A stretch of DNA of 64,000 bases from Candidatus Latescibacterota bacterium (GCA_965219995.1 CBDCOX010000002.1:1952001-2016000); one strand, 5' to 3'. Numbered from the stretch's first letter, positions 13,519 through 34,274 are shown. Numbers and translations are program-made. The notes: generated by a model from the letters alone, not told the origin.

Positions 13519-14394
13519 ATGAGCGCCAACAGGTACGTGATGTCGGCAGAAGAACGTTATTTCTTCGACCTGAGCGGATATCTGGTCGTCAGCAATGCGC
13601 TCACAGCCGAAGAGGTGGCCGAGTGCAATGCCGCCATCGACCACTTCGCCGACCGCGTTTCCACCCGTTCCGTCGACACCGGCAGCCTCTCCGGCGGATC
13701 ATCAGCCCTGAAAGGTGCGCAGGGGCGAAAGGAACTTACCGGAATGCTGGCCTGGCCTGCGCCATACAGGGAGCCGTTCAGAAACCTCCTGGTCCATCCC
13801 GTCGTAGTCTCGCGCCTGAATGAGATGTCCGGAAAGGGATTTCGACTCGACCACGGTCCATTGCTCATCGGCGCGGAAGCCGGCGCGGAGGGGCACCAGT
13901 TGCATGGCGCCGGGGAACCCTTCAGCCAGTCTGTATGGTACCACCAGCAGAACGGCAGGATGTACTGCCGCGGCGTCACCGTAGCCTGGCAACTGACGGA
14001 CGTCAACAAGGGTGACGGTGGATTCTGCATCGTACCCGGCAGCCACAAGACGCGCGAACCCGCTCCGGCGGGAATACGCTCCGTGGAAGATCATATGGAC
14101 CTGGTTGTACAGCCAGTGATGTCAGCTGGCGACGTCCTGTTTTTCGCCGAAACCGCCACGCATGGCACCCTCCCGTGGAGAGGCAGACACGAACGTCGTT
14201 CGGTACTCTACAAGTACGCTTCACGAGCCGCCGCCCGCGCAACGGGGCGCCATTTTACACCCGAAACCCGCTGGGGTAATTGGGTCCGGGACCTCAGTCC
14301 CGAACAGAGGGCCGTTCTCTATGGGCCCGGCGTCCACACAGGCTCGGACTTTCCGAGGCTGGATTCCGACGGAGAGACGACCCGGGTCGTCTGA
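13519..14394 (+). CDS. PhyH-family Fe(II)/2OG oxygenase, HxA variant
   Basis: FDLSGYLVV, LHGAG, LTDV..GDGGF..VPGSHK, AGDVLFF...THG, RR; RBS AGGAGG. Confidence 0.9.
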   Translation: MSANRYVMSAEERYFFDLSGYLVVSNALTAEEVAECNAAIDHFADRVSTRSVDTGSLSGGSSALKGAQGRKELTGMLAWPAPYREPFRNLLVHPVVVSRLNEMSGKGFRLDHGPLLIGAEAGAEGHQLHGAGEPFSQSVWYHQQNGRMYCRGVTVAWQLTDVNKGDGGFCIVPGSHKTREPAPAGIRSVEDHMDLVVQPVMSAGDVLFFAETATHGTLPWRGRHERRSVLYKYASRAAARATGRHFTPETRWGNWVRDLSPEQRAVLYGPGVHTGSDFPRLDSDGETTRVV

Positions 14395-14444
14395 GTAAAC
14401 GTGGCAAACGGCGCGGTACAGTCAGTACTCGACTGGAGCAGGTC

Positions 14445-15308
14445 ATGAATGCAAAGGAACGCTACCTGTGGGATCTCACGGGATACCTGATTGCACGCCA
14501 GGTACTTTCGCCCGAAGAGCTCGCAGCCGCGAACGAAGCCATCAACCGGTACCAGGAACGGATGCAGGTAGGCGATGACAATCTGGGCGCGCGTGACTCG
14601 AATTCCCTCCGGGGCACCGGCCGTCCGACCATGCACGACCTGCTGCAGTTGGAACACCCTCATTGCGAACCGTTTCGGCGGATGCTCGTCCACCCCGCCG
14701 TCGTCAGGCGCCTGAACGTCATGTGCGGGACGGGCTTTCGCCTGGATCACGGCCCGTTGCTCATATCCGGTGTCAAAGGTACCGAGGGCCTGACCATGCA
14801 CGGCTCCGGCGAGCCGCACAGACCCCACGTGGCCTACCATCACCAGAATGGCGGGACCTACTGCGGCGGCGTCACGGTAAGCTGGCAACTCGCCGACGTG
14901 AACCCGGGGGACGGCGGCTTCACCTGCGTACCCGGCAGCCACAAATCCGGATTTCCCATGCCGCCGGGCGTTCGCACGTGCGACGACGACATGGGTACGG
15001 TGGTGCAGCCGGCCATGCGGGCCGGCGACGTCCTGTTCTTCATGGACGGCGCACAGACCCATGGCACACGACCCTGGCAGAGCGAGCGGCCCCGCCGTTC
15101 CGTACTGTACAAATACGCTTCCAGATCTTCCATACGGGGCGGCTCCGCGAAAGATCTGGCCCCACCCGAAATATACTGGGGCGAAGAACTCGTGGAGGGC
15201 ATGACCCCTGAGCAGCGCGCGGTTATGTACGGGCCCTATTCCAACCACGGGGGCGAGATTCCGTTCCTCGCCGTGGACGCCGACGGGAATGTCCGGATCG
15301 AGCGTTGA
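14445..15308 (+). CDS. PhyH-family Fe(II)/2OG oxygenase, HxS variant; tandem paralog of the previous gene
   Basis: WDLTGYL, MHGSG, LADV.PGDGGF..VPGSHK, AGDVLFF...THGT, RRSVLYKYASR shared with the neighbour. Confidence 0.9.
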   Translation: MNAKERYLWDLTGYLIARQVLSPEELAAANEAINRYQERMQVGDDNLGARDSNSLRGTGRPTMHDLLQLEHPHCEPFRRMLVHPAVVRRLNVMCGTGFRLDHGPLLISGVKGTEGLTMHGSGEPHRPHVAYHHQNGGTYCGGVTVSWQLADVNPGDGGFTCVPGSHKSGFPMPPGVRTCDDDMGTVVQPAMRAGDVLFFMDGAQTHGTRPWQSERPRRSVLYKYASRSSIRGGSAKDLAPPEIYWGEELVEGMTPEQRAVMYGPYSNHGGEIPFLAVDADGNVRIER

Positions 15309-16312
15309 ATAAGGGCCTTATGGACGTTTCCGAAGCGGAAACGGTGGCACGCCTGATTCGAAATGCGTATCCGTCCTTCGCCCTGCTGGCCGGTATGCAA
15401 CTCGGCGTTTTCAATACCCTGGCCGACGGGCCGTTGGATGCGCGGCAAATCGCAGCAAAAAGCGAGGTGTCGGCCGATCGCCTCTCACGGCTGCTATACG
15501 CGCTGGTGGCGGCGGGCCTGCTGCGCGGGGAAGACGATCGCTTTGTCAATTGCAGCGAAGCACAGCGTTATCTTGTAGAGTCCAGCCCGGATTACATCGG
15601 CAACCTTCACCACCTTCTTTCGGTTCTCTGGTCGGCATCGCTCAAGACCGCGGAATCGATTCGGCTCGACCAACCCCAGGCCGAACACAGTTTTGCCGAC
15701 ATGCCCACCGGTCAGTTGTACGCCTTCCTTCGCGGACTTCACGACGAGGCACTCGCGACCGGACGGTACCTGGCCGCCTGTTTCGATTTTTCGTCCTGCA
15801 GGCGCCTTCTCGATGTTGGAGGGGGTTCGGGCGGCGTGGCGATCGCCGCCGCCGAGGCCAGTCCCCGCCTGACCGCCACCGTGCTGGATCTGCCCGAGGT
15901 CGTCCCCGTTACAAGGCGTTTCATTCGTCAGGCGAACGCGACCGACCGGGTACGCACCCTCGCGCTGGACGTCACCCGAGAACCCGTCCAGGAGGAATTC
16001 GACGCGGCGGTTGCGAAAGCGTTTGTCCAGACCCTTGCTCCGGACCAGGCAGGTCGGGCCCTGTCGCACATCGGCGCCGCGCTCCGTCCCGGGGGTTCCA
16101 TCTACATCCTGGGCAGCGGCATCCTGGACGACAGCCGATGTTCACCGCCCGACGCGGCAATCTTCAACATCGTCTTCCTCAACATCTATCGCGGGGGTCG
16201 CGCCTACACGGAAAGCGAGTACAGAACCTGGTTGATCCAGGCGGGATTCGAGGATGTCCATCGGACCAGGCAACCGAACGGATCGAGCATCATCACGGCG
16301 ACGAAATCATGA
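15305..16312 (+). CDS. SAM-dependent O-methyltransferase (dimerisation plus Methyltransf_2, ASMT/COMT-like); start may be ATG 15320
   Basis: QLGVF..LADGP winged helix, RLL.AL...GLL, LLDVGGGSG, LDLPEV, LRPGG, AGF. Confidence 0.9.
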   Translation: MNKGLMDVSEAETVARLIRNAYPSFALLAGMQLGVFNTLADGPLDARQIAAKSEVSADRLSRLLYALVAAGLLRGEDDRFVNCSEAQRYLVESSPDYIGNLHHLLSVLWSASLKTAESIRLDQPQAEHSFADMPTGQLYAFLRGLHDEALATGRYLAACFDFSSCRRLLDVGGGSGGVAIAAAEASPRLTATVLDLPEVVPVTRRFIRQANATDRVRTLALDVTREPVQEEFDAAVAKAFVQTLAPDQAGRALSHIGAALRPGGSIYILGSGILDDSRCSPPDAAIFNIVFLNIYRGGRAYTESEYRTWLIQAGFEDVHRTRQPNGSSIITATKS

Positions 16313-16366
16313 ATGGGCTGCCGCATCAGGCAGTGGCGCGGAATTCGGATTCCCGTCAGAATCGAG

Positions 16367-16410
16367 TTGACAAACAGGGTTTCCCTGTTTACCTGTAATA
16401 CATCTTTACA
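16367..16410 (+). promoter_or_regulatory. Putative promoter with two palindromic operator-like sites
   Basis: TTGACA 16367-16372; AAACAGGG-ttt-CCCTGTTT 16372-16390; TGTAA-N7-TTACA 16394-16410. Confidence 0.45.
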
Positions 16411-16502
16411 TAAGGGCGTCTCGGCAGATGTCATCCACCTGAAACGGTGTCGCGCCACATTCGGCGGCGGCCGGTTGCCCGGATTGACGACAGCCCTCAG
16501 GA

Positions 16503-17345
16503 ATGTTCATGGATACCGACCTCGCAACGTACCTGTTTGACCTTCGTGGTTATCTGCATCTCGAGAACGCGCTCTCCATCGAGGAAGTCGGAGAACTCAA
16601 CACCTGCCTGGACGGGATTCCGTCCCTCATGCCGGGGGAGTGGTTCGGCAATGTCCACGCCCATACCTACGGAGACGACACGTCCGGCCTGAATCTGCAA
16701 CAGATCTATGAAGCCGGAGAGCCCTTTGAGAACCTGATCGACCATCCTGCGTGGTTCGAACTGGTCAAGCGCTTCGTGGGAGGCGAGGGCAGCTTCGACT
16801 ACCACCACGGCCCCTTGTTCATCGACGAGAATTTCGCGAATTTTCGCGAACCCGGCGAAGCCATCGGGCTGCACTCCGGCGGGTACCCGCCCATATTGCG
16901 CAATCAGTTTCGCTACCACGGCGGACGCTTCATGTGCGGGCAGATCAACATCCTGGTCGCGCTTACCGACGTCGGGCCCGGCGACGGCGGCACCATGGTC
17001 ATTCCCGGAAGCCACAAATCCAATTTCAAACACCCCCACTTCGACAGACACCGGATGTCCAGAAACGCCACGGTCGAAGGCATCGAGGGCGCCGTCGAAA
17101 TTCAGATGAATGCAGGGGACGCGCTGTTGTTTGTGGACGGCATCTCGCATGGTTCCGCCCGGCGTTCCAACCCGGGTACGCGGCGCGTGGTTGTCTATCG
17201 TTATGGCCCGTCATGGGGCAACTTCCGGCACGGCTATCAGCCATCGCAGGAACTCCTGAAGAGACTCACGCCCGAGCGGCGACGGATCGTGCAGCCGCAG
17301 CACCTCATCCCTCGAGGATCGCACGAAAAGACCGATTCAGTCTGA
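16503..17345 (+). CDS. PhyH-family Fe(II)/2OG oxygenase, HxG variant
   Basis: LFDLRGYL, LHSGG, LTDVGPGDGGT.VIPGSHK, AGDALLF...SHGS, RR. Confidence 0.9.
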   Translation: MFMDTDLATYLFDLRGYLHLENALSIEEVGELNTCLDGIPSLMPGEWFGNVHAHTYGDDTSGLNLQQIYEAGEPFENLIDHPAWFELVKRFVGGEGSFDYHHGPLFIDENFANFREPGEAIGLHSGGYPPILRNQFRYHGGRFMCGQINILVALTDVGPGDGGTMVIPGSHKSNFKHPHFDRHRMSRNATVEGIEGAVEIQMNAGDALLFVDGISHGSARRSNPGTRRVVVYRYGPSWGNFRHGYQPSQELLKRLTPERRRIVQPQHLIPRGSHEKTDSV

Positions 17346-17409
17346 GCGTCGAGAAGAGGACCGACATTATCACTTCTAATAATCCCTTACGAATACCAAG
17401 GAGGCTCAC

Positions 17410-18141
17410 ATGGCTAACTCTCAGGACATGCTGGAAGCATTGAAGAACTTCGACACCCCGTCAATCACGAACGTCGTGGCCACGTATCCCGGCAACCCGC
17501 TCTGCCTGAGCCTCTACAATCCCTGGACGGAAAACTGGTACACGGACCAATCGATCAAATGCATGTACCCCGAGTTGGGCCGCACGGTCGGTTACGCGGT
17601 GACGTGCGTCTTCGGACTGCCCGACCCCGACTACACCTCTCTGTCGTTTCTGGACGTGATTGACGCGCTGGACGCGTCTCCCAAACCCACCGTTCTTGTC
17701 TTCCAGCAGAAATTTCCGCCGGAACTCGCGGCCAAGGTCGGACTGGCCGGAGGCAACATGACTTCGGCCATGAAAGCCGTCGGATGCGTAGGCGCCATCT
17801 CCAACGGGCCCTCTCGGGACATCGACGAGATTCGCCCCATGCAATTTCAATACATGCTCAGCGGCGTCACCGCCGGGCACGGCGGCATGGACGTGCACGC
17901 CGTCAATGTGCCGGTCTCGGTAGGCGGAATGGACGTGGCTCCCGGCGAGATCATCCATATGGACGAGAACGGCGCGTGCAAATTTCCCGCCGACAAACTG
18001 GAAGCCGTTCTCAACAACGTCCGTGCGCTGCAGAAGGAAGAGGAGGAACGAATGGGCGCCCTGCTGAACGCCTCTTCAGCCGATGAAGTCCGGGCGATCC
18101 TGGGCGGACATACGTACGCTGACGAGGACGAGGATGTCTGA
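17410..18141 (+). CDS. RraA/HMG-CHA aldolase family protein
   Basis: FDTPSITN, VGYAVT, GGNM, G..SNGPSRDIDE, VSVGGM.VAPG.IIH.DENG; RBS AAGGAGG. Confidence 0.85.
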   Translation: MANSQDMLEALKNFDTPSITNVVATYPGNPLCLSLYNPWTENWYTDQSIKCMYPELGRTVGYAVTCVFGLPDPDYTSLSFLDVIDALDASPKPTVLVFQQKFPPELAAKVGLAGGNMTSAMKAVGCVGAISNGPSRDIDEIRPMQFQYMLSGVTAGHGGMDVHAVNVPVSVGGMDVAPGEIIHMDENGACKFPADKLEAVLNNVRALQKEEEERMGALLNASSADEVRAILGGHTYADEDEDV

Positions 18142-18280: not shown

Positions 18281-21200
18281 CTACGCCACAATCCTGACGC
18301 GATCGCCAACGGCCGTTGAATACACTTCAAATGATTCGCCGATAACCTTCGAAAAATCAAATGCTTCCTCTACAACAAAGGTCGTTCGCCCGCGCATCCT
18401 GCGAATCGTAAACACGTGGTTCCCGATTCTCAACCGGCATCCGGGATATGCACCGCCCTTCGGATGATCCACGGTGCTTTCGAATCTGGATCGCTTCCCG
18501 GATGCCACCTTGCCCCTGCCTCTGACGAACCTGGGCATGTCCGCCAGGAAGACACGGCTGCCGCCACCCTCACGCTCTATTCGCCGCACCCGATACACCG
18601 TTTCAAGCGTTGACGGATGCCGGACGTAGACCACCTTTCCGTCAAGCGATCCATCCTCAGGCAACGCGACGTCCAGCACCATTTCGCTCCGCCCCGGTGC
18701 ACCGGAAATGTCTCCCGCCAGTTCCGTGACGACCCCTTTGTAGTCGGAAATCCTCTGAACTTCCGATTCGCCGACCCTTAACCGCGACCCTTCAATCACA
18801 TCGAGATCGAGGTTTGCGGAGGTCTCGCTCGCCACGCCCGCCCGTCCCCTGAGTTCAAATCGCCTGCCGTCCGGCAGGGTCGTAACCAACCCCACGCCCC
18901 GGGGATCGATCGCGATTGTCCGGTCCCGGTCTCGTTCATTCACCTGCAGCACAACGCCGGACCCATTCCGCGCCACCAGGTTCGCACCCCGAACGAAACT
19001 CTCGCCGGTATGCGCTTCAATGACTGCGACGAACAGGCTCGTTTCGCCTCGTTGCCGCAGGCAGACTGTACGCATCCAGAAATCGTCCAACTTGCCGTCG
19101 TCCTCCCGCGTCCGTCGGATGGAAGGTGCGTCGCTGATCAGCAATCGCCCCGCTTGCACGCCCAGAAACCTGACGTCCACCTGCGCGCCTCCACCCTCGA
19201 ACCGCACGTTGAAATCTCCGGACACATCCGCAGCGCGCGTGCGTTTCAGATATCCGAAAAGGGCGCCGTCCGTCCCGTCTCCGCGCAGAATCATCTCCGC
19301 TTCAGCGGCTCGCAGTCCTACTTCTGTGGAAATCGTCTGGTCGAAGTCGGCCGATCCGTGCAGCAGATAGTCGTGCACGTCACCGCCTTCCACCTCGAAC
19401 AGGTCCACCACGTACCCGCTATCGGGCCCCGTTGGGACGAGCATCATCGATCGTCGATACACGGTCGTATTCCCGAAGGCTCCCGCTGCTTCCGCGCAAA
19501 CGAATCCAACGCGCGTACGGGAAGCCGGGCGATAACTGAGCAGCCGCCCGCTTTCTCTGGTCTGCTCCCGTCCGTCGACGACCACGGTATTGTGGCTGCC
19601 GACCGTCGTCGCCCACTCCCGGTAACGGGTATGCGTGTACCCGATGTCCGACAGCAGTTCCTGACCGAACATATCCAGGCCCATCGCGAGGGTGTCGTAA
19701 TGGTGATGTCCGCCCCACGGACCGTAACCCAGCGTCGCGCGCACGGCTTCCTTCGATCGTCCCACGCCCAGGATCACGTCGCCGGCCGCCGGCAACAGAT
19801 AATTCGCGGGCACAAGCGCGAGCAGATCGTCGTCCGTGACGCGCCGGTCGGCTTCCGACGTCCGTCGAAAGAGCGCGTGCTCGACGTCGGCGACTGGAAT
19901 GCGGGAGGTGCCTCTGATTTCATCCGCTGCTTCCACGAATTTGCCCATAGACGCAATCTGACTGGAAACACGTGCGAAACCGGTACTCAGCGCCCACGTG
20001 TCATTGGCCATGAACGTGCGTCCGTCCGGCATGAACAATCCCAGCGGCGCCGTATAGACTCGCTCCAGAAACGGCATCTCTCCGTAAACGTCGATTCCGC
20101 CTGGCCCACTGATGACATCAGGCACACGAAGGGTCCCGCTTGTAATCATATTGAAGTAGTTGAGGGTATTCTCGTGCCAGTACCCGTCGTAATAATAGCA
20201 GTTATCGATCAACGTACGGTACAGGCTGTACGATCTGCTTACGAAATCCGTTTCGTCGAGAGCCCTTCCCACGAGCGCCATCCCGTTGATCCGCCCCCCG
20301 TCGTAATTGGTCGAGCCATGGGGAATCTCCAGTGTGTGCCGGATTGCCTCGTACAGCAGATCACGCTCGATGGCCTCGCGCACGTCCCGCCCCTCGGATT
20401 CAGACAGACTTTCGATGGCGCCGCTGTCGGAAATCAGGTCGTAAACCTGAGCCAGCCGGAACGCGTTGTACGCGTCCGAAAAGGGGCTGGCATGAAAATT
20501 GCCCATTCTGGCGGAAACGAACGGAAAGGGCGGATCCTTGTAGAAGTGGTTCTCGTAGAATCCCTTCCGATCGGCGTGCAGATACGACACGCCCAGTCCG
20601 TGCACGGGATAGTTCTTGTAGACTTCCGAAAGCCGATCCAGGATCACCGCCGCTTTGTGTGCATACGCCATTTCGCCGGTCAGCACATAGGCGATCGACA
20701 GGGGATCCGCCATCCGGACCACCTGGTATTGCGTGTAATTCAGCAGCATATTCTCGAAAAAGTACCGCATCCCCTCTTCATCCTCCCAATACCGGTATCG
20801 CACCGTCCCACCGGCAGGACCGATCACCTCGATCTCTCCCACCTGCTGGTGTTCCGGTCCCGGGAACACGCTCCCGCAAATCTTGCACCGAACTCGGTAC
20901 GGATCCTTCGGCGACCATTCCCAGAAATGGATCCGCCAACTCCTCTTTCTCCGGTCCACGGGACATCGCGGGAGCGGAAAGTTGACCTGGTCTGAAATAC
21001 CGGCACGAATCTGCGCGTCGGGCATTTCGAGAATCTTGCGGTTGGCGATCCACCTCAATTGCCCGTCTCTGAACCGCCTGGCCCATTCGTGCGATTCCAC
21101 CCGCCTGCGCGCCCGCTCGATCTGATCCGGAGTATAGAAGAGCGGGTGTTCCACCCCTCTGGGAAACGGTCGTTCGCCTTCCCAGTACCTCTTTTCCCTT

Positions 21201-21328
21201 GAACAGTCGATTCGCTCGATTCCCATATCATTCCTCCACAACGCCCGATCGCATCCCGCCGCAAGAACCACGGCGCCCAGGCCGGCGTCCCGCAAAAACT
21301 CCCGTCTCGTGAGTAAATGCTCTGACAT
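18281..21328 (-). CDS. Tat-exported lipoprotein, heparinase II/III-like polysaccharide lyase
   Basis: TRREFL twin-arginine motif plus LAAGC lipobox; YYDGYWHE..LNY, GGHHHYD, D.GY, HNTVVVDG, YRR..., VDLF.V.GG..HDY.LHG. Confidence 0.85.
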   Translation of the reverse strand: MSEHLLTRREFLRDAGLGAVVLAAGCDRALWRNDMGIERIDCSREKRYWEGERPFPRGVEHPLFYTPDQIERARRRVESHEWARRFRDGQLRWIANRKILEMPDAQIRAGISDQVNFPLPRCPVDRRKRSWRIHFWEWSPKDPYRVRCKICGSVFPGPEHQQVGEIEVIGPAGGTVRYRYWEDEEGMRYFFENMLLNYTQYQVVRMADPLSIAYVLTGEMAYAHKAAVILDRLSEVYKNYPVHGLGVSYLHADRKGFYENHFYKDPPFPFVSARMGNFHASPFSDAYNAFRLAQVYDLISDSGAIESLSESEGRDVREAIERDLLYEAIRHTLEIPHGSTNYDGGRINGMALVGRALDETDFVSRSYSLYRTLIDNCYYYDGYWHENTLNYFNMITSGTLRVPDVISGPGGIDVYGEMPFLERVYTAPLGLFMPDGRTFMANDTWALSTGFARVSSQIASMGKFVEAADEIRGTSRIPVADVEHALFRRTSEADRRVTDDDLLALVPANYLLPAAGDVILGVGRSKEAVRATLGYGPWGGHHHYDTLAMGLDMFGQELLSDIGYTHTRYREWATTVGSHNTVVVDGREQTRESGRLLSYRPASRTRVGFVCAEAAGAFGNTTVYRRSMMLVPTGPDSGYVVDLFEVEGGDVHDYLLHGSADFDQTISTEVGLRAAEAEMILRGDGTDGALFGYLKRTRAADVSGDFNVRFEGGGAQVDVRFLGVQAGRLLISDAPSIRRTREDDGKLDDFWMRTVCLRQRGETSLFVAVIEAHTGESFVRGANLVARNGSGVVLQVNERDRDRTIAIDPRGVGLVTTLPDGRRFELRGRAGVASETSANLDLDVIEGSRLRVGESEVQRISDYKGVVTELAGDISGAPGRSEMVLDVALPEDGSLDGKVVYVRHPSTLETVYRVRRIEREGGGSRVFLADMPRFVRGRGKVASGKRSRFESTVDHPKGGAYPGCRLRIGNHVFTIRRMRGRTTFVVEEAFDFSKVIGESFEVYSTAVGDRVRIVA

Positions 21329-21603
21329 CTGGCGCACCCGTAAACGCACGGCCCTGCAGGAGCCGTATCACTCATCATCTAACTTACGAATTCCATTGGG
21401 CGTTCGACGATGGGCGACGTCCCGAAATAAGACGCCGGGAGAATGTCCCGTGTTGCGGACTCCCCCGGCCGGATCGTGTGTTCCAGCGGGAATACCGCCC
21501 TGCTGCGGAAATATACGCCGGCCACGTATCGAAGTCCAGGCACACCGTGAAGCCGGTTTGAGCTCGTGGCGTCGAACGCTATCCGAAAAAACGATCGCAA
21601 CCC

Positions 21604-21776: not shown

Positions 21777-22175
21777 ATGGCGAAGAAAAGACGATTGGCC
21801 GAAGCGGAATGGGAGGTGATGGACGGCGTCTGGCAATTCGGTCGCCGGGTTACCGTTCGCGAGGTTGTGGATCACCTCTATCCCAACGGCGAGAAGGCCT
21901 ATACGACGGTTCAGACGATCATGAATATTCTGACTGCAAAGGGCGTACTTGACCGGGAGAAGATCGGTCCCGTCAATGTGTACAGACCCGCGCTGTCGCG
22001 GCAGGACGTCGCCCAGGCCGAAACGCGAAACCTGGTATCGCGCATGTTCGAGGGTTCCTTCGGCGCCCTGGCGACCTATCTCGTGGATTCGGGCGAACTC
22101 TCGAAGAAGGAGCTCGATGAATTGCGGGCACTGATCGAGGAAAGAGAAAAGGCGAAGGAAGGAGGCCCGACGTGA
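21777..22175 (+). CDS. blaI: BlaI/MecI/CopY family repressor
   Basis: L.EAEWEVM..VW, TVREV, AYTTVQTIM..L..KG.L.R, F.GS...L...L, LS.KELDELR. Confidence 0.95.
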   Translation: MAKKRRLAEAEWEVMDGVWQFGRRVTVREVVDHLYPNGEKAYTTVQTIMNILTAKGVLDREKIGPVNVYRPALSRQDVAQAETRNLVSRMFEGSFGALATYLVDSGELSKKELDELRALIEEREKAKEGGPT

Positions 22176-24373
22176 ACACGTTCATACATCTGGCGGAAGC
22201 GTGGTGGCCGCTCTATGCCGTGCACATGGTCGAAATCTCGTTCTTCATTGTTCTTGTGTGGTCCGTCGACCGGTGGTTGGCGCTGGATTCACGGTTGAGA
22301 TACGCGCTCTATCTGCTGGCCCTCGCGAAGGTGTTTGTACCGCCGGTACTCGCCATCCCGATACCCGCGTTTCTGGTTTCTCCGGCAGGTGTCGCAGTGG
22401 ACGCAACCGCTTATTTCGGAGCGGTATCTGAAGCCGTCGCTGTCTCTCCCGAACCTGCAGCCACGCTTCCGCCGGCGTTCTATTTGTTCTGTCTGTGGAT
22501 TCTCTCGGTCCTGGCCTGGACGGGCGCGGCGCTGTGGAAAAACGCGGCCTTTCGTCGAGCGCTGAAGCCGGCAAGCCCGGTGGACCTGGCAAGCGAGATC
22601 GCGTCACTGAACGCACCCGAGACCTTGAGAGTGTATTCCAGGGCAACCCTGCCTTCTCCCATTCTGGTGGGCCTGCGGAGACCGCGGTTGTTCCTGCCCT
22701 CGAAGTGGTCTTCGTGGTCGTCTGAAGAACTGCGAGGCGTCTTGAAGCACGAACTGGCGCACCATGAACGGCGTGACATCTACGTGCTGATTCTGCAGGC
22801 CCTGGCAACGGCGCTGTTTGGCGCAAATCCGTTCATCTGGCTGTTGAACCGCAGGTTGGCGTACCTGCGCGAATTGCGCTGTGACGAAGCGGTGCTGCGT
22901 GAGACGAATCTGACACCGGCCGATTACGGGCGCCTGTTGCTGGGCTTTGTCGACAAGCGGTCCTCCCCGGGGCCGCTGACCGTATTTTTCACCGAGCGTG
23001 GAACGACACTGAAGAAGCGGCTGGAGCACATCCTCAACTACAAGGCGGGCAATATGAACCGGTCAAAGCGGCAGTTTGTAACGCTAATACTCGTCGGCCT
23101 GATGATGGTGCCGCTCTCGATCCGTGAAGCGTATACACAGAATGACGTCTCAAAGTCGGCCACAAACGTCAAGGTGGCGAAAATTGAACACGTACAGCGT
23201 ACCGCGCCCACGGGTACGGGCAACATCGACTCTGTTTCGGTTGGAGTCCCAACCGCCGACGAGGCTGAAGTGGAAACGAAGCCCGTTACGATTTCGCAGA
23301 TCAAGAGTTCAGTTATTGTTCAGGATGCTTTTATGCAATTCGTGAATTCTCGTACCGCACCTGATACAGGGTTCACCGCCACGGTAACCTTGAACGTACG
23401 GGCCGATCTATACGGCTCGGTGGAAGATGTGAAGGTTATGAACGTCGAAGGACCGGCAGGATTCAAAAACGCGGTAAAAGACGCCTTATCGCGAGTAAGA
23501 TTTGAACCAGAGAAACACGTTAGCGAAAATGCGTCGGTATGGTTTACCCAGCAAGTTTCATATCACTGGTATGGCACATCAATGCGCTCAAATCCGGGAA
23601 ATCTCCCCGCTGCCCCGGACACTGGCCTGATCGACGTTCTTGACATCGACCAGATCGAAACGAAACCCCATCCGATACATATTGTCGGCCTGGAGTATCC
23701 GGAAGAAGCAATCAAGACCAAAACAGAAGGAGTGGTTACACTGAGGCTTATCGTGAATGTCGACAGTTCGGTTAGCGACGTGAACGTATTGAACGGACCG
23801 GAGATATTTCACAAGGCCGCGACAGATGCGGTATTGCAATGGCGGTTCAGACCGGCAATGCATCGGGGCGAAATCGTCCGTGCATGGATCAAAATGCCAA
23901 TTGGATTTACCCTTAAACCAGAGGAGAAGGACAAGACGTCATCCGCAAAGACGACGGATCGCCTGATAATCGAAACACCGGACCCAACGTCCGCGCTGCC
24001 GCCGGACAGGAGCGCCTTTGAAGGTGCCAAGGTCTTTCGGTCTTTCGAGGTAGACGTAAAGCCGGTCAACCTGAACTTGCACGCTGTTCGGCCCAATTAT
24101 CCAGATTCGGCAAAGGAAACAGGATTAACGGGCAGCGTCTTTCTGAAATTCAAGATCAACGTGGATGGATCCGTGAGCGGCGTGCAGGTTCTGCGAGGCG
24201 ATGAGATATTTCGCAAGCCGGCGATCGAGACAGTTACACAATTTAGATTCACACCTGCTGAACTTGATGGCAAACCCGTCCCCGTTTGGATGACCCAGCG
24301 CATTGCGTTCGCGCTACCGAATAATCGGGACGAGACAGTTTCTGATACGAGTGATTCGGGTGGGAAAAATTAG
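22172..24373 (+). CDS. BlaR1-type M56 metallopeptidase fused to three TonB C-terminal domains
   Basis: N-terminal TM helices, HELAH (HExxH) ..RRD, NPFIW, RELRCDE, LKKRLEHIL; two YP..A....EG.V.L...V..DG.V..V.V TonB_C repeats plus one degenerate copy; GTGA overlap with blaI. Confidence 0.9.
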   Translation: MNTFIHLAEAWWPLYAVHMVEISFFIVLVWSVDRWLALDSRLRYALYLLALAKVFVPPVLAIPIPAFLVSPAGVAVDATAYFGAVSEAVAVSPEPAATLPPAFYLFCLWILSVLAWTGAALWKNAAFRRALKPASPVDLASEIASLNAPETLRVYSRATLPSPILVGLRRPRLFLPSKWSSWSSEELRGVLKHELAHHERRDIYVLILQALATALFGANPFIWLLNRRLAYLRELRCDEAVLRETNLTPADYGRLLLGFVDKRSSPGPLTVFFTERGTTLKKRLEHILNYKAGNMNRSKRQFVTLILVGLMMVPLSIREAYTQNDVSKSATNVKVAKIEHVQRTAPTGTGNIDSVSVGVPTADEAEVETKPVTISQIKSSVIVQDAFMQFVNSRTAPDTGFTATVTLNVRADLYGSVEDVKVMNVEGPAGFKNAVKDALSRVRFEPEKHVSENASVWFTQQVSYHWYGTSMRSNPGNLPAAPDTGLIDVLDIDQIETKPHPIHIVGLEYPEEAIKTKTEGVVTLRLIVNVDSSVSDVNVLNGPEIFHKAATDAVLQWRFRPAMHRGEIVRAWIKMPIGFTLKPEEKDKTSSAKTTDRLIIETPDPTSALPPDRSAFEGAKVFRSFEVDVKPVNLNLHAVRPNYPDSAKETGLTGSVFLKFKINVDGSVSGVQVLRGDEIFRKPAIETVTQFRFTPAELDGKPVPVWMTQRIAFALPNNRDETVSDTSDSGGKN

Positions 24374-27542: not shown

Positions 27543-30530
27543 TCAGTGTTTCGCCTCGAACCAACCGGAGTTCAATATCGTTACCGTCTCGGTTGGAATC
27601 GCTGGATAGTCTCTGACGGTAACGGCGTTTTCGGTGGCCGATTCAATCTCGAAACCCGTACGAGGCGCCTCGCCGGCCAACAGATACGACCCCGCGACGC
27701 GCGCGGGATCGGGCAACGGTTCCGAAAGATGGTACGTCCGGTCTTCTACAGACCGGACGCGCAACCTCGTGCTGGCTTCGGGCAGCGAAACATCCAGATC
27801 GCCGCACGTCAATTCCGTACCGTTCAACAAATAGCCCTGGACGGCGCCACCGTGCTCATTCACCGACACAAATCCAAATCGACCCGCCAGACGAACGGGA
27901 CCATATTGACGTTGCTCCTGGTCCGTCGAGGAAATGATATAGTCGGTGCGGCCGGCCAACTGAACTTCGATCGCCACAACACCGGTTTCCGGATTGTCTT
28001 CGATCAATCGCGCACCGGCAACCGGCGAACTTCCCGATATATAAGGCACAATCAGTGCGGTATACTGGCTTGAGAGCGCGGTACGGTCGTCGCCGGCGCG
28101 GTCTTCCGCAAGTAGTTGCCCGATGGATGGCTGTTTCAACTCTTCGGTATCGAATACCCGCCAACCCGGAGCGTCGGCGACGACCAACCTCTGCGGCGTA
28201 TTCAGCAGCATGAGATCCAGATTCACGCCCCGATATTTCCACGTAAACGACGTTGATTTATCCGGCAGAGTCGCCCTCGGATTCTCAAGCCATTCAGCCC
28301 AGACATCCGGAAGTTCCACTGCATCGTACTCGGCGAAATCCGGCGACCCTCCCATGAGAGATCCGTTGCAGTGAAATCCGTATTGATGGGTTCTTCCACC
28401 TCTGACGCGGAAAATGTCGACGACGTAACGCTGATTCTCAGGCGCGTCCACCAGAACGCAAACTCGCTGGTAGACGTCGCACTGCGGGTACACGTTGACA
28501 CCCGAAGCCTGCACGACCTCAATTCCCGGAGCCAATCCGAAAAGCTCCAGGTTGGAGCCACACTCGCTTCGCTCCTGCTCCTGTTCGTCGACGACCACCA
28601 GATTGTGTGAAAGGGTACTCCGCATCCACCTCTGCCCGCTCCGACCGTCCGGCAGGCGCTGGTCGCTGCCGGAAAAATAACCCCGGTCCGACGCCAATTC
28701 CTCGCCGAAGGCATACAGACTAAAGCTCAACACATCCTGGTGCCGATGCCCGGTTTCCACCGTCCACTGGTGCTCGTTGCCGTTCAGATAGAGCGCCGTG
28801 TCGTTTGTCTTTCCATCGCCTCGCAAAACAGCCACATGCCATCCTGGAAACCACTCGGAGCGAATCGGCAGCTCCGCCGCGACGGACGTCAGACCGGAGG
28901 GCCGATACCACAACGCATACTCGCTCCCCTTCCGTGACAATTCCTCACCTTGTACAAGCTCCAGCATTCTACCATATTGCCCGCCGAGGCGTGCCGCCAG
29001 GATTTCGAAGGACAGATGGTCCGCGTACGTATCATAACGCGTATCTCCAATTACCGGCATGCGGTTTCCGGGTGCGAGCAGGCGAACATGTGACTCGACG
29101 GACTCACGAAAGCGGCCCCTCGAAAACATGTCCAACGTCTGGATCCGTTCGCCTTCCTCGGGCACGTAATCCGGCGGGTCGCTGTAACCATGCAGCAGAT
29201 CGGCCAGTTCGCGCACGTTCGAAAGGTTGTGGGCCGAATAGGACGGCGTTTCCGCGTAGAACCCATCGTGATGGTAGCGTGCGTCCAGCATGCGGTGGAA
29301 ACCGTCCAGCGCGCGCCGGACCCGGTCCGGCTGCCTGAATAGCATCCCCGCTCCTGCGCTCAACACGAAGACGGCGGTGCCTTTATTCGAAAGAGAATTC
29401 CAATGTTCCATGTCCGTGCAACCGGCCAGCAACAGGTCATCGACGATCCGGCGATCGGTAGCCTCATCCAGCACGCGGCGACCGTCGGGAAATGATGCAT
29501 CTCGAACCAGATCATACGCGACCATCAACGAAAACAGCGGGCCTGCATCGCTTCCCTTCCCGTGTACGTTCATTCGCCCCGCCCCCCAGAATCCGTTGTT
29601 CAGCGTGGACCAGGTCTCAAACTGGTGCAGGCCGTAGGCGTGTCGTATCGCGCCCGGCGGAAAGCGGCCGCCATGGGGGCCACCCGCCGATTCCTCCCTG
29701 CCCATATTGGCGGCCACCTCCGCGGGCGGCAGGTCCGCGATGCTGCCGTCGTACGAATGGTAGAGATAATTCGGATAAACACGGGCGAACCGATCCAGTA
29801 TCCAGACGACCCTCTCGGCGTATTTCGCCTCGACTGTAACGGCGTACAGCTTTGCCAACGTCAACGCCTGGCCCGTGGCCCAACCCACCTTGCGATCTCG
29901 AATATGACCCGTGAAACTGGTCATCGTTGGACGTTCCCCGAGCCACTTGAGCGCGTGTTTCGCCCGGTTTTCTGGATCAGCCACTTCCTCGGGGGTCTGG
30001 TAGTAGGTAAACTGCTGTCCCATCCTGGGGCATTCGAGCACGCCGGTTTCCGGATACCGTGCGTTCGGATACACCGTCCCACAGGCGCTGCAGGCTATCT
30101 CGTCGGGACGCGCAATATTCCATCTGAACCGCCCGCCGCCCATCAGCGACTGTGTCCCCACGCAGTGGGGGCAATTCTGACCATAGTGGGTCCCGGGCGT
30201 CAACTCCGGTATCAACGCATCGAAGAACGCCCGGTCCTTCTGCATCGCCAGCGCAACGCTCCTTTTCCATCCCCCCACGATTTCATTCGCCCAACCGTAG
30301 CGCGTCACGTTTCGGCGGGCATTTTCGATATCCCCGGATTTGTACATCGTCCGCGGTTGAGCGTGCGCAGTCTTACACGCCAACAGCAGTGCGCTCGCAG
30401 CCAACACGAGCGCCGGCGCGGGGACACTCCTCAACATCCACACGGCGAGCACCGAAAGGGCAACTCCGGGGATGGCCAGAGCGGCGATACCGACCAACCG
30501 GCCGATGTCTTTCGCGGTCGTCCTTCTCAT
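27543..30530 (-). CDS. Secreted heparinase II/III-like polysaccharide lyase
   Basis: Hydrophobic N-terminus ending AHA; CPHC..CSAC; DGFYAETPSY, GHRHQD, SDRGY, SHNLVVVD, VDIFRVRGG..H.Y.FH; RBS AAGGAGG. Confidence 0.85.
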   Translation of the reverse strand: MRRTTAKDIGRLVGIAALAIPGVALSVLAVWMLRSVPAPALVLAASALLLACKTAHAQPRTMYKSGDIENARRNVTRYGWANEIVGGWKRSVALAMQKDRAFFDALIPELTPGTHYGQNCPHCVGTQSLMGGGRFRWNIARPDEIACSACGTVYPNARYPETGVLECPRMGQQFTYYQTPEEVADPENRAKHALKWLGERPTMTSFTGHIRDRKVGWATGQALTLAKLYAVTVEAKYAERVVWILDRFARVYPNYLYHSYDGSIADLPPAEVAANMGREESAGGPHGGRFPPGAIRHAYGLHQFETWSTLNNGFWGAGRMNVHGKGSDAGPLFSLMVAYDLVRDASFPDGRRVLDEATDRRIVDDLLLAGCTDMEHWNSLSNKGTAVFVLSAGAGMLFRQPDRVRRALDGFHRMLDARYHHDGFYAETPSYSAHNLSNVRELADLLHGYSDPPDYVPEEGERIQTLDMFSRGRFRESVESHVRLLAPGNRMPVIGDTRYDTYADHLSFEILAARLGGQYGRMLELVQGEELSRKGSEYALWYRPSGLTSVAAELPIRSEWFPGWHVAVLRGDGKTNDTALYLNGNEHQWTVETGHRHQDVLSFSLYAFGEELASDRGYFSGSDQRLPDGRSGQRWMRSTLSHNLVVVDEQEQERSECGSNLELFGLAPGIEVVQASGVNVYPQCDVYQRVCVLVDAPENQRYVVDIFRVRGGRTHQYGFHCNGSLMGGSPDFAEYDAVELPDVWAEWLENPRATLPDKSTSFTWKYRGVNLDLMLLNTPQRLVVADAPGWRVFDTEELKQPSIGQLLAEDRAGDDRTALSSQYTALIVPYISGSSPVAGARLIEDNPETGVVAIEVQLAGRTDYIISSTDQEQRQYGPVRLAGRFGFVSVNEHGGAVQGYLLNGTELTCGDLDVSLPEASTRLRVRSVEDRTYHLSEPLPDPARVAGSYLLAGEAPRTGFEIESATENAVTVRDYPAIPTETVTILNSGWFEAKH

Positions 30531-30548
30531 GTCAGCCCCTCCTTGGCT

Positions 30549-30714
30549 TAGCAGCCCGTTGAAAAAGTCCATCCGGTCTGCGTCCGGCCCTTGTGGCCGA
30601 AATACAGCGTTGCGCTCCCTCCCCGAATCCAGGGATGCGCGTCGGTCGCGCGCCTTGTCTTCGGCCACAATGACTCGGCCTCGCCTGCAGAGCGACTTTT
30701 TCAACGGACTGTTA
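30549..30714. mobile_element. MITE-like non-autonomous element
   Basis: 21-bp terminal inverted repeats TAGCAGCCCGTTGAAAAAGTC / GACTTTTTCAACGGACTGTTA (19/21), inner perfect 11-bp IR TTGTGGCCGAA/TTCGGCCACAA, TTA at both ends, no transposase. Confidence 0.75.
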
Positions 30715-31533
30715 CGAACCATACAGCGAATCCGCTGTTTTGCCCAGAATCCACGTTTTGTCGTCGTCAGAAAGAAATTCCATCGCTTCTTCGATCACGC
30801 GGAAGCCGACGGCCTCGCCGCGCTGAGGGTCTTCGGGAAAACCCGTACATCCCAGCATCCGGCGGGATCCGAACGCCTCGTAAACGGCCCTGACGTAGGG
30901 ATGAACGTCTTCATGCGGCCATGGCTTCGTGGAAATCCCGTCAATCCTCGTGGCCTTCACGTAGAGATTGGGGTATTTCGCCGCCTCCAGGAGGATCCGG
31001 AAACTGCCATCCAGGCCCTCCGCAAGAAAGGGCTCTCCCAGATGGTCCACAATCACATTCACCTCGGGGAATCGCTGCAACATCGGTTCCATCAATGGAA
31101 TCTGATGGCAGCGGCCGAACCAGGTGAACGGAACGCCGAGCTTTCGAGCCGTATCCCAAAGCGCCGTCTGATCATCGCGTGACAACCACGATGCGTCCTT
31201 ATCCTTGACCGGATACAACCGCATCCCCTGTACGCCATGTTCGCGGTGCAGCCGCACCATCTTTTCAGCAGCATCCGGTTTCAGAGGATCGATCAACGCC
31301 ACCCCGTGCAAACGACCGGGAAATCGGCGCATGCAGTCACACATGTAACTGTTGTCATATCCATGATACATGCACTGAATGAGTACGGTCCGGTCGATGC
31401 CGTTCAGGTCCATATATCTGATGAGATCCTCGACAAGACCCGGATACACGGGCCTGTTTGTCGACATCTGGTCGTTGTGGGTGAACGGCGGCTCTCCCAT
31501 GGTCCATACGTGTACGTGAGAATCGATTCGCAT
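30712..31533 (-). CDS. Amidohydrolase_2 family protein (lactonase-like)
   Basis: IDSHVHVW, VLIQ...HGYDNSY, GMRL, IVDHLG, N.YVK, FG..RML..T.FP. Confidence 0.9.
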   Translation of the reverse strand: MRIDSHVHVWTMGEPPFTHNDQMSTNRPVYPGLVEDLIRYMDLNGIDRTVLIQCMYHGYDNSYMCDCMRRFPGRLHGVALIDPLKPDAAEKMVRLHREHGVQGMRLYPVKDKDASWLSRDDQTALWDTARKLGVPFTWFGRCHQIPLMEPMLQRFPEVNVIVDHLGEPFLAEGLDGSFRILLEAAKYPNLYVKATRIDGISTKPWPHEDVHPYVRAVYEAFGSRRMLGCTGFPEDPQRGEAVGFRVIEEAMEFLSDDDKTWILGKTADSLYGS

Positions 31534-31571: not shown

Positions 31572-32507
31572 TCACGGCGCGCTCTTGCGTACAAGCTTAC
31601 ACAATGCATCCAGTGTAATGCCCTCCGGACGCATCCCAATCCGCCGGCAGGCGTCCGGTATCGTTTTGAAGATCAGTTCAAGGTTCATCCGTGCCGGATG
31701 ACCGGGATCGGAATAGTCCCGGTCGTTGTGACTGTCCGTCACAATGACCGGAAACCGGGGATCGTCGCGCAGGAACCGGTCCAGCATGTCCTTGACAACG
31801 GCAACGTGGTCGTACCGATGGGGAACATAGAGCCATTCAAATCCCCGCTCTCCGGCGTGTCCGCGCTGCACCGGGCGGCCGAACGCTACCGACACCGGTA
31901 CATTGATGAAATCTCTTCCCCCAGCAACCAGACGACATTCGTAATGTGCCCTGTGGGGGTACGTCTCCGCCCCGGCCCACATGCTCTGATGGCCCGGGAG
32001 TACGCGCCCCGGAATGGACAGGCTGCCTCCGGCGAAGCCCAGTTCGTCCAGAACGCGAAACGTGGCGTCACTCGCCGAAAAGTAGCCCGCCCTGAAGTAT
32101 CGAGGCCGGCCGCCCAGCGCGGATTCCCATGCCAGCATCGCTTCGCTGATTATTCCCGACTGTTCCGCGGCCGTGTACGCCCCGAGGTCATGTTTGTATT
32201 TCCCGCCCTTGAGCTTGTACGGATGCAAATGCAACCCCAGACACGCGCCGCGCTCCCGCAGGTCGAGAAGCAGGTCCGCATTTCCGGACGCGACTTCCGG
32301 ATGCGTGAAGAGCGTTACCGGAAAGTCGTACGAGGCCGCCGTTTCGACATAGGCACGGATCGACCGTTCGCTTTCCCGATAGTCTGAAGGACCGCTGCCC
32401 GACATCCGGATTGCGCAGGGCGTCAGGTCTGACCTGGCGGTCTCGCAGTCCATCGTCAGCAGCACGTAGACCGTCCTCAATTCACGCCTCTGCGAGACGG
32501 GACACAA
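31572..32507 (-). CDS. Polysaccharide deacetylase (NodB-like) family protein; start uncertain
   Basis: LTMDCE, VTLF, GLHLHP, FRAGYFS motifs. Confidence 0.75.
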   Translation of the reverse strand: MCPVSQRRELRTVYVLLTMDCETARSDLTPCAIRMSGSGPSDYRESERSIRAYVETAASYDFPVTLFTHPEVASGNADLLLDLRERGACLGLHLHPYKLKGGKYKHDLGAYTAAEQSGIISEAMLAWESALGGRPRYFRAGYFSASDATFRVLDELGFAGGSLSIPGRVLPGHQSMWAGAETYPHRAHYECRLVAGGRDFINVPVSVAFGRPVQRGHAGERGFEWLYVPHRYDHVAVVKDMLDRFLRDDPRFPVIVTDSHNDRDYSDPGHPARMNLELIFKTIPDACRRIGMRPEGITLDALCKLVRKSAP

Positions 32508-32543
32508 ACGTCAGCCCTCTTGCGAAATCGAGCCGGTTTCGCG

Positions 32544-33413
32544 TTATCCGCGCCAATCCGTGTCGATGCTCGTATAGCCATGGGTATATTTCTTCAAGTG
32601 CTCCGGCAGATTCTGCAGAAACCATCGACCCGACTGCGGAATCTCCCACGGAACGTCGATTCGGTGCCCGCGGTCTCTGAACCCGATGGCACACGACAGT
32701 CTCGTCTCCCCTGTCCGATTGGGAAACGCGCCATGGTACGTCCGGTGTGCGAAAACGATCATATCGCCACCATGCGTAAACAACGGCACAAGCCCTGGAA
32801 TGTCAAACCCGGCGTAGGGTCGCTCTTCCCCGCCTTGGGGGTAAAACGACCGCCTGTCCGCCGTCATGCTGAACCCCTCCGGCCCTTCCCAACCGTCCAC
32901 GTGGGAGTCTTCGATGACACACAATCCGCCATGTACCGGGCGGGATCCCGTCAGGTAGAACCACTTGCCCGACGGCCAGAGACCACGGTTCAAAACATCG
33001 CCGGAATTCCTGATTTCCGTTGAAAACCCGCCCCAGTCCGTATGCCACGTCACAGGTTGAGACCCCGGCTTCCTGATGATTGCGGCCGACCGGTGTACTG
33101 TCAACTCGTCGGTACCGATCAGATGGCGATGAATGGCCAGGAACGGTTCGTATTCAAGGAGCGACCAGGCTCCGGGCCCGGATTCGATCCACGCGTGGCG
33201 TGTACGGCTCTCACCCGGGCCTAGATTGCCCTCGGGATCGGTGCCGTCATACACGGCCTGTTTCAGCCGCTCAACCCTGTCATGAGGCAGCACGTCCTTG
33301 ATGACCGCGAACCCGTGCGCCTCCAGGCATTCGCTCATCGCGTCCAGATCCTCAATGCCGAATTCGTACTGATATTCAATGTCGGGCTTCTGCACGTGTG
33401 AATAGTCTTCCAT
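32544..33413 (-). CDS. PhyH-family dioxygenase with canonical HxD triad
   Basis: HGFAVIKDVL, WHTD, GGL.VI..SH, GDMIVF..RTYHGA.PN, R. Confidence 0.85.
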   Translation of the reverse strand: MEDYSHVQKPDIEYQYEFGIEDLDAMSECLEAHGFAVIKDVLPHDRVERLKQAVYDGTDPEGNLGPGESRTRHAWIESGPGAWSLLEYEPFLAIHRHLIGTDELTVHRSAAIIRKPGSQPVTWHTDWGGFSTEIRNSGDVLNRGLWPSGKWFYLTGSRPVHGGLCVIEDSHVDGWEGPEGFSMTADRRSFYPQGGEERPYAGFDIPGLVPLFTHGGDMIVFAHRTYHGAFPNRTGETRLSCAIGFRDRGHRIDVPWEIPQSGRWFLQNLPEHLKKYTHGYTSIDTDWRG

Positions 33414-33464
33414 CGCACTCTCGCTTTGGTTCAACCGCGTTGTGTGACTGGAAATGGCAGCCTC

Positions 33465-34274
33465 TCAATCCCCAATGGCCGTGCGCATCGTTGGATCCGA
33501 CGAACTCAGGTAGTGGTCCAACGTATTCCGGGTTGCCGGCCGGGTACGAAAATCGGCAATCCACGGTTCTCGGAAATAGGCTTGTTTCTCCCGCGGCAGA
33601 CCGTTCAGTACTTCGGGAGGCACGTTCAGCCGGTGCCAGTGCGTTGCCAGGTGCGAATAGGCGTGCAACACGGCAATACGCGGCGTATCACGGGTCCACT
33701 CGGGGCCGACGTGGCAGACGTTCTCAGTGAAAAACACGGCGCTTCCAGCGGGGCAGGCATATCCCATCAGGAACGGGCTCCGCTTTCCCGGCTCCATGGA
33801 AAGGTGATCGGGATGCATTTCGAAATTCGCCTTATGGCTGCCGACGATGAAATGCGTGCCTCCATCTTCCGGCTCCACTTCCGTCAACTCGAAGACCACG
33901 CGCACCATCCCCGCGTGAATCCGCCCGTTCTGACACCGGTATCCGAATATGGGATCGATCTGGCTCGGACCGCCTCCGTGAAGCCCCCCGCCGTGAGACT
34001 CCCCCTTTTTTCTGATTACGCAGTAGCACCCTTCCATCCGGATCTCGGGCCCGATAATTTCGTGCAATACCTCCACGACTTTCGGATGATCGATCAGAAC
34101 ACTGGACGGCCCCCCGGGAACGGTACGGTGCTCGGGCGGCAGCGAGTCCGGATTGTGGACGATGCGATCGATCTGCTCGACGATGGATACAATCTCACCC
34201 TGATTCAGAATGGCGGGACGCACCAGAAAACCCGTCAGATCGAACCGAAACCTCTCTTCATCGGTCATGGCCAT
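33465..34274 (-). CDS. PhyH-family Fe(II)/2OG oxygenase, HxG variant
   Basis: EERFRFDLTGFL, LHGGG, ELTEV..EDGGT.FI.GSHK, AGSAVFFTE..CH, R; RBS GGAGG. Confidence 0.88.
   Translation of the reverse strand: MAMTDEERFRFDLTGFLVRPAILNQGEIVSIVEQIDRIVHNPDSLPPEHRTVPGGPSSVLIDHPKVVEVLHEIIGPEIRMEGCYCVIRKKGESHGGGLHGGGPSQIDPIFGYRCQNGRIHAGMVRVVFELTEVEPEDGGTHFIVGSHKANFEMHPDHLSMEPGKRSPFLMGYACPAGSAVFFTENVCHVGPEWTRDTPRIAVLHAYSHLATHWHRLNVPPEVLNGLPREKQAYFREPWIADFRTRPATRNTLDHYLSSSDPTMRTAIGD

Follow-up and report, generated by a model that had tools for sequence, protein, structure and literature searches.

Halogenases of the PhyH superfamily, such as SyrB2 and CytC3, hold their iron without a protein carboxylate. 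Another arrangement of the metal site is that of HygX from Streptomyces hygroscopicus (PDB 4XC9, 4XCA, 4XCB and 4ZPI), an Fe(II)/2-oxoglutarate (2OG) oxidative cyclase that acts on a pseudo-trisaccharide to make the orthoester of hygromycin B; its structure was reportedly described by McCulloch in 2015, and its geometry is said to have been known since then. As summarized in the section on this enzyme in a 2026 review (PMC13374393), the metal site of HygX has the arrangement H-x-G ... E-x3-H, with Lys137 filling the gap left by the Gly, and in vitro HygX makes hygromycin B from hygromycin C by orthoester formation. Here, we analyze five genes of the PhyH family (W1 to W5) in a stretch of 64,000 nucleotides from Candidatus Latescibacterota bacterium (GCA_965219995.1 CBDCOX010000002.1:1952001-2016000; hereafter the window, G+C content about 60%). 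Four of the encoded proteins, W1, W2, W3 and W5, are quite likely to be HygX-type Fe(II)/2OG oxygenases of the PhyH branch, with a triad that is complete but rearranged, and not halogenases. The five genes are the following:

13519..14394, + strand: W1, 291 amino acids (aa), probable HygX-type PhyH-fold Fe(II)/2OG oxygenase (Pfam PF05721, PhyH, E 1.1e-15; best PDB match HygX, 4.6e-07)
14445..15308, + strand: W2, 287 aa, probable HygX-type PhyH-fold oxygenase and probable partner of W1 (PhyH E 7e-14; best PDB match HygX, 1.4e-07)
16503..17345, + strand: W3, 280 aa, probable HygX-type PhyH-fold oxygenase (PhyH E 2.6e-18; best PDB match HygX, 9.9e-12)
32544..33413, - strand: W4, 289 aa, canonical PhyH-family oxygenase (PhyH E 9.6e-15)
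33465..34274, - strand: W5, 269 aa, probable HygX-type PhyH-fold oxygenase (PhyH E 2.9e-05; best PDB match HygX, 7.5e-11)

All five open reading frames (ORFs) score above the family cut-off of PF05721 in a scan of 44 window ORFs, and a search with the family hidden Markov model (HMM) over all window ORFs of at least 80 aa recovered the same five only, with no sixth PhyH-type copy. The HygX-type family HMM assigns 300 bits to W5 and just 37.7 bits to W4; W1 and W2 share 52% identity. No NCBIfam family reached its cut-off for any of W1 to W5, and a look-alike search of the Atlas returned generic PhyH clusters alone. The PhyH domain begins at most about 12 residues from Met1 in these proteins, which implies the absence of a signal peptide, so that W1, W2, W3 and W5 are presumably cytoplasmic.

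A preliminary description of this locus held that the carboxylate is gone from the H-x-D motif in four of the five proteins and that H-T-D persists only in W4. Translation and alignment bear this out, with Asp or Glu found two residues after the first His (H+2) in W4 only and in none of W1, W2, W3 and W5:

13903..13911, + strand: first motif of W1, H129-G-A131, without a carboxylate
14799..14807, + strand: first motif of W2, H119-G-S121
16872..16880, + strand: first motif of W3, H124-S-G126
33972..33980, - strand: first motif of W5, H99-G-G101
33036..33044, - strand: first motif of W4, H124-T-D126

The four variants are paralogues of one clade and hence do not represent four independent events. 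This clade is large: a profile of the four variant proteins, searched against 1.84 billion representatives (clusters at 50% identity), yielded 5959 clusters at E <=1e-3 and 336 at E <=1e-30. Motifs were counted in the best 150 of the 5959 clusters, which gave 173 domain rows; 47 of these were left out because one or both aligned His are missing (fragments or decayed domains), and the 126 with both His aligned are referred to below as the representative domains. A second sample consisted of the PhyH-like ORFs of 80 related loci (286 rows, 228 with both His aligned and 58 set aside); these rows include many orthologues, and the counts describe clades, not independent events. Not one of the 126 representative domains has Asp or Glu at H+2. 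The H+2 residue of W1 is Ala, Gly or Ser in 119 of 120 homologues and Gln in the remaining one, with an acid in none. Ala, Asn, Gln or Ser is found at this position among the W2 orthologues, many of which have Asn or Gln; the W3 orthologues all read LHSGG (24 of 24), and H99 and G101 of W5 are invariant in 120 of 120 homologues.

Each of the four variants has an acidic residue shortly before the distal His, at -4 in W1, W3 and W5 and at -5 in W2; W4 has a His there. The second motifs and the 2OG-binding Arg residues are located as follows:

14149..14163, + strand: second motif of W1, E211-T-A-T-H215, aligned E on E and H on H with ...NEALMHGT of HygX
15045..15062, + strand: second motif of W2, D201-G-A-Q-T-H206, with the acid 5 before the His, one residue more than in W1 and HygX
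17136..17150, + strand: second motif of W3, D212-G-I-S-H216, by alignment
33711..33725, - strand: second motif of W5, E184-N-V-C-H188, by alignment
32733..32747, - strand: second motif of W4, H223-R-T-Y-H227, by alignment, with no acid at the relocated position
14194..14196, + strand: R226 of W1, 11 residues after the distal His
15093..15095, + strand: R217 of W2, 11 residues after the distal His
17181..17183, + strand: R227 of W3, 11 residues after the distal His
33678..33680, - strand: R199 of W5, 11 residues after the distal His

The local contexts are FFA-E-TAT-H (W1), FFM-D-GAQT-H (W2), LFV-D-GIS-H (W3), FFT-E-NVC-H (W5) and FA-H-RTY-H (W4), and D201 of W2 falls in register with E211 of W1 if the GDVLFF strand before them is taken as the starting point. 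All five proteins have, as previously claimed, the distal His and the Arg, the latter at exactly +11; the GSHK block, also ascribed to all of them, is found in the four variants, whereas W4 reads DSHV.

The acid is invariant in the orthologues of the four window proteins, which argues for a function. In the related loci, all 82 W1-like ORFs have Glu, and an acid is also found in all 120 wider W1 homologues. Of the 92 W2-like ORFs, 91 have Asp and the last one is unaligned at the site. The 24 W3 orthologues all have Asp; Glu is present in each of the 5 W5-like ORFs, and none of the 120 wider W5 homologues departs from E184, H188 or R199. Among the representative domains, 110 of 126 have the acid, either at -4 (104) or at -5 (6). 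In the 228 aligned rows of the 80 loci, the two carboxylate positions are mutually exclusive: the -4/-5 acid is present in 206 of the 213 rows that lack H-x-D/E versus 0 of the 15 H-x-D rows. No acid at -4 was seen in the 58 set-aside locus rows where the segment of the distal His is visible.

Both sequence and fold place the variants closest to HygX, the best PDB sequence match of each of the four. A family profile of 149 sequences, compared with the PDB, matched almost the entire length of HygX (1.7e-33), followed by EctD at 1.3e-16, and the profile-on-HygX alignment pairs LHgg with LHGG, FtEaltHGt with LNEALMHGT and GSHKsnfP with GSHKANFP. In a Foldseek search with the AlphaFold2 model of W1 (predicted local distance difference test, pLDDT, 93.7; predicted template modelling score, pTM, 0.92), HygX chains occupied ranks 1-10 (E 2e-16 to 2e-14, about 20% identity), with fungal meroterpenoid oxygenases next. 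The double-stranded beta-helix of the PhyH fold is indicated by the PF05721 match in all four variants and, for W1, also by the model and the Foldseek search; as in HygX, the variants combine a small residue at H+2 (Ala, Ser, Gly and Gly in W1, W2, W3 and W5, respectively) with the acid at -4 or, in W2, at -5. W4 is of the canonical type, its only PDB match being ectoine hydroxylase (E 0.011), with wHtDw aligned on wHsDf. These comparisons establish the fold, the motif, its conservation and the closest kinship to HygX.

By homology to HygX, we infer that the conserved Glu/Asp binds iron in the window proteins. The carboxylate would have moved away from H-x-D, the position of which is now Gly, Ala or Ser, and would be supplied by the Glu/Asp at the end of the strand before the distal His, within E-x3-H (W1 and W5), D-x3-H (W3) or D-x4-H (W2). 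Two His, this Glu/Asp and bidentate 2OG would fill all but one position of the iron, which O2 would take, so that no coordination site would remain for a halide. The expected chemistry would therefore be ferryl-based oxidation (hydroxylation, oxidative dealkylation or cyclisation), presumably with oxygenated products; halogenase function is unlikely.

Several points weigh against this assignment of the ligand. Ligation by the Glu/Asp would follow from an alignment with HygX at about 20% identity; HygX is the sole member of the clade with a known substrate, product or metal content; and the account of its triad comes from the HygX section of the 2026 review, besides which no description of the triad was found in a literature search for HygX. 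The column of HygX Lys137, with numbering inferred from chain positions, holds Thr, Thr, Asn and Arg in W1, W2, W3 and W5, respectively. In W2, the acid lies one residue further from the distal His than in HygX, and the AlphaFold2 model of this protein (41 close orthologues) is poor (pLDDT 63.5) and was not used as evidence.

Nor does conservation by itself choose between this acid and another one farther upstream. The preliminary description noted an acidic residue 16-18 positions before the first His and proposed that it reaches the iron from the neighbouring strand. Acids do occur at these distances, 18 in W1 (D111), 18 in W2 (D101), 16 in W3 (D108) and 18 in W5 (E81); the column shared by W1, W2 and W5 is Asp or Glu in 98 of the 126 representative domains, compared with 110 for the -4/-5 acid, and does not vary among the orthologues of W1, W2 or W5. 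The upstream residue clearly has some role. The four acids do not, however, occupy one homologous position: D108 of W3 (in FIDE) lies 7 residues downstream of the shared column, where W3 has His101, and His is found there in 24 of 24 W3 orthologues. The family-profile alignment places Leu in this column of HygX, which nonetheless binds its metal through E-x3-H according to the review section cited above (PMC13374393). Another possible reason for the conservation is offered by the predicted W1:W2 complex, in which residues 105-111 of W1 and 95-100 of W2 lie in the subunit interface. Given His in the W3 family and Leu in HygX, the upstream Asp/Glu appears to be a weaker ligand candidate than the -4/-5 acid, and we consider coordination of iron by this residue very improbable. 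The idea of a relocated ligand is thus supported in principle, although the wrong residue had been named, and the triad geometry, anticipated to be novel, is the one already described for HygX.

The other proposal made for this locus was that of a new, carrier-independent halogenase clade, in which the iron would be held by two His and a halide would replace the carboxylate, as in SyrB2, CytC3, WelO5 and BesD. All four proteins have H-x-G/A/S at the first motif, and "HxG/A" is used as the signature of non-haem iron halogenases in a published annotation pipeline (PMC13519999, Table 1). Kinship to the named halogenases was judged by the E-values of the 149-sequence family profile against the PDB, in which SyrB2 (3.4e-09) and CytC3 (1.8e-08) are detectable relatives, but HygX is about 24 orders of magnitude nearer to the profile than SyrB2 and tops the fold search, with no halogenase among the Foldseek matches listed (top rank 49). 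The conserved Glu/Asp aligns with the relocated metal ligand of HygX, so that, by homology, a protein carboxylate would be available to the iron. Many W2 orthologues have Asn or Gln at the supposedly opened position, and a conserved halide pocket would hardly be expected to tolerate such variety (Ala, Asn, Gln and Ser). Carrier-protein, nonribosomal peptide synthetase (NRPS) and polyketide synthase (PKS) domains were not found by Pfam among the 44 window ORFs, and the neighbours of W1-W2 vary outside the closest genomes, unlike the context of a natural-product cluster. Moreover, loss of the carboxylate alone does not imply halogenation: AspH is reported to be a two-His Fe(II)/2OG hydroxylase, and loss of the H-x-D carboxylate is thus compatible with hydroxylation. 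We therefore find a halogenase identity of these four proteins hardly credible. The preliminary description had allowed that its proposal would fall if the clade were already characterized as hydroxylases; in spirit this is the case, the only member characterized so far being an oxidative cyclase that performs no halide chemistry.

Within the wider clade, 16 of the 126 representative domains (for example, P0253, P0259, P0317 and P0352) have no acid at H+2, -4 or -5, and degenerate domains are clearly present among relatives with tandem domains. The latter were recognized among the 150 representatives, 18 of which give more than one domain row: 13 combine a W1-like N-terminal with a W2-like C-terminal domain, 1 has the reverse order, 2 contain a W2-like domain twice, and 2 are split matches of one domain. 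Most two-domain proteins have an N-terminal domain without the first His, in which E-x3-H is sometimes kept; the C-terminal W2-like domain of the tandem relatives keeps both His, often with Gly or Ala in place of the W2 Asp, so that, to judge from primary sequence, neither half appears to have a full triad. These tandem relatives (P0246-P0256, P0289, P0290, P0302, P0305, P0334, P0351 and P0386) lie outside the window. Together with the AspH precedent, such domains favour the possibility that the relocated acid is not on iron and the window proteins are two-His enzymes, or that some copies are catalytically dead partners. All four window proteins, in contrast, keep both His, the acid, the Arg at +11 and GSHK, and the invariance of the acid among their orthologues argues for a function; we regard this explanation as quite unlikely for them. 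The no-acid minority, none of which is encoded in the window, might itself have a true two-His site, either halide-binding or AspH-like, judging from the aligned motifs.

The assignment of the window proteins as HygX-type oxygenases is accompanied by a recurrent pairing of W1 and W2. In the 80 related loci (L001-L080, around position 10001-11900), which come from four phyla, 75 of the W1 orthologues have a W2-like ORF as immediate neighbour on their own strand, downstream only in 57, on both sides in 11 and upstream only in 7; of the 5 loci without an adjacent W2-like ORF, one is on a contig that ends 216 bases after W1. Fused versions of the pair are found in other genomes, among the tandem-domain relatives described above. 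Structure prediction for the W1:W2 complex gave a score of 0.72, whereas none of 3 controls rose above 0.00. Of 157 solved complexes, 116 come up to this mark, as do 2 of 215 mismatched pairs; these rates are approximate as own alignments were used. The prediction runs agree in at least 94% of contacts, with a partner pLDDT of at least 86. Since a solved PhyH-fold heterodimer (TlxIJ) and HygX oligomers exist, the pass of the W1:W2 prediction may reflect likeness to these. On the basis of the predicted complex, W1 and W2 probably work as a heterodimer, and the conserved pair provides a concrete, expressible target for finding the function of a large uncharacterized family.

The closest relatives of W1 (82-90% identity) come from Candidatus Latescibacterota genomes, with some assigned to Gemmatimonadota or to an uncultured bacterium; those at 66-75% identity belong to Latescibacterota, Poribacteria, Gemmatimonadota and Dehalococcoidia. 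The local gene order in the window is aminotransferase, 3-hydroxyacyl-CoA-dehydrogenase-like gene, W1, W2, O-methyltransferase, W3 and RraA-like gene; this order does not extend beyond the 15 closest loci (W1 at 82-90% identity), two of which are without the methyltransferase. In five distant loci analyzed with Pfam, only W2 and other PhyH paralogues recur, apart from frequent sulfatases. The conserved neighbours were considered as a clue to the substrate and rejected, the arrangement being limited to the 15 closest loci. At the 3-hydroxyacyl-CoA-dehydrogenase-like gene, two long ORFs overlap on opposite strands, 12281-13243 (-) and 12485-13465 (+); the Pfam matches (3-hydroxyacyl-CoA dehydrogenase domains) are confined to the + strand ORF, so that the - strand ORF is probably an artefact of high G+C.

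A sulfatase-like ORF is present in 39 of the 80 related loci. In the window, the genes around W4 and W5 include polysaccharide-deacetylase-like and amidohydrolase_2 genes and three heparinase-II/III-like genes, with a sulfatase, a GFO/IDH/MocA gene and aldo-keto reductases nearby (Pfam). The heparinase-like genes, at 18281-21349 (-), 27543-30722 (-) and 34210-36984 (+), encode proteins of 1022, 1059 and 924 aa, respectively, the sole Pfam match of which is the heparinase II/III-like C-terminal domain, with a weak NCBIfam likeness to oligoalginate lyase. A sulfatase is encoded at 9459-10799 and a protein with an FGE-sulfatase domain at 46468-47628; jointly with the three heparinase-like proteins, this suggests glycan breakdown. 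The neighbouring sulfatase, heparinase-II/III-like, GFO/IDH/MocA, amidohydrolase and aminotransferase genes, along with the pseudo-trisaccharide substrate of HygX, lead us to guess that the substrate is a sugar- or amine-derived metabolite.

Further genes of the window merit mention in their own right. A BlaI-type repressor gene followed by BlaR1 (peptidase M56) with two matches to the TonB C-terminal domain, an unusual sensor architecture, is located at 21777-24373 (+). A DUF6785/DUF6784 protein is encoded at 52910-54910 (-), and another at 15798-17708 (-) of a Poribacteria locus (L029), about 4 kb from W1-W2; this recurrence may be a coincidence. The homologue of PorV (type IX secretion) encoded at 62219-63265 (-) agrees with an organism from the FCB (Fibrobacteres-Chlorobi-Bacteroidetes) group such as Latescibacterota.

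The PhyH genes of the window belong to the PhyH expansion reported for Poribacteria: in the portion of the Kamke 2014 study that deals with protein families, PF05721 is the most abundant Pfam family in Poribacteria genomes, accounting for >1.9% of genes, mostly without an assignable function (PMC3909097). Our literature search on PhyH genes in sponge-associated bacteria found them treated only in Kamke 2014, with no mention in the PAUC34f paper. Tentatively, the observations can be joined into a single, somewhat doubtful scenario. W1 and W2 would form an obligate heterodimeric HygX-type oxygenase. Marine bacteria, mostly uncultured, of four phyla (Latescibacterota, Poribacteria, Gemmatimonadota and Dehalococcoidia) would have retained the two as a conserved gene pair; elsewhere they would be fused, one half having decayed to a partner without catalysis. 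The pair, W3 and W5 would all be part of a very large uncharacterized family whose members oxidize sugar or amine metabolites of host or algal origin, for instance by stripping off O-methyl or O-sulfate groups oxidatively; if true, this would account for the surplus of PhyH genes long noted in Poribacteria (Kamke 2014). Separately, the two-His minority without the acid could represent halide- or anion-binding variants.

Comparison with the known systems delineates the variants. Canonical PhyH hydroxylases, such as EctD and human PhyH, have the same fold, the distal His and the Arg 11 residues later, but their carboxylate is that of H-x-D, and the position 4 residues ahead of the distal His is not acidic (compare the 0 of 15 H-x-D paralogues above). 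SyrB2 (2FCT) and CytC3 (3GJA) belong to the same superfamily and, like the variants, have the carboxylate of H-x-D replaced by Ala or Gly. They are far more distant, being matched in two separate stretches, the best of which covers the N-terminal half only (profile positions 14-182); and unlike them, the variants have a conserved carboxylate available, in a window with no carrier-protein or NRPS Pfam domain among the 44 ORFs scanned. The clade thus carries the H-x-G/A signature of halogenases yet keeps a carboxylate elsewhere, so that motif mining would over-call halogenases unless the E/D-x3-H position is checked too. AspH, set apart by its description, belongs to an unrelated branch of the superfamily and has no relocated carboxylate. 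The heterodimeric Fe(II)/2OG dioxygenase TlxI/TlxJ (PDB 7VBQ) consists of two PhyH-fold paralogues, like the adjacent W1 and W2, but is a fungal meroterpenoid enzyme and distant (both chains match the family profile, at 1.8e-12 and 5.9e-09), and binding between W1 and W2 is a prediction.

HygX shares with the four variants the PhyH-type double-stranded beta-helix, the E-x3-H before the distal His (D-x4-H in W2), the GSHK(A/S)NFP block and the N-terminal (Y/F)xFDxxG(Y/F)L block, and its first motif is H-G-G. It differs in about 10 extra residues after the first motif, in the low overall identity of about 20% and apparently in Lys137, which, with the inferred numbering, is not conserved in the window proteins; aminoglycoside or orthosomycin cluster genes were not found by Pfam among the 44 window ORFs. 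The kinship of the window proteins to HygX is one of homology and common site design, not of orthology or a shared pathway. The HygX-type geometry was already known; what is added here is that this site design is widespread. HygX has so far seemed an oddity of one antibiotic pathway, yet in a large family from uncultured bacteria its design is the norm.

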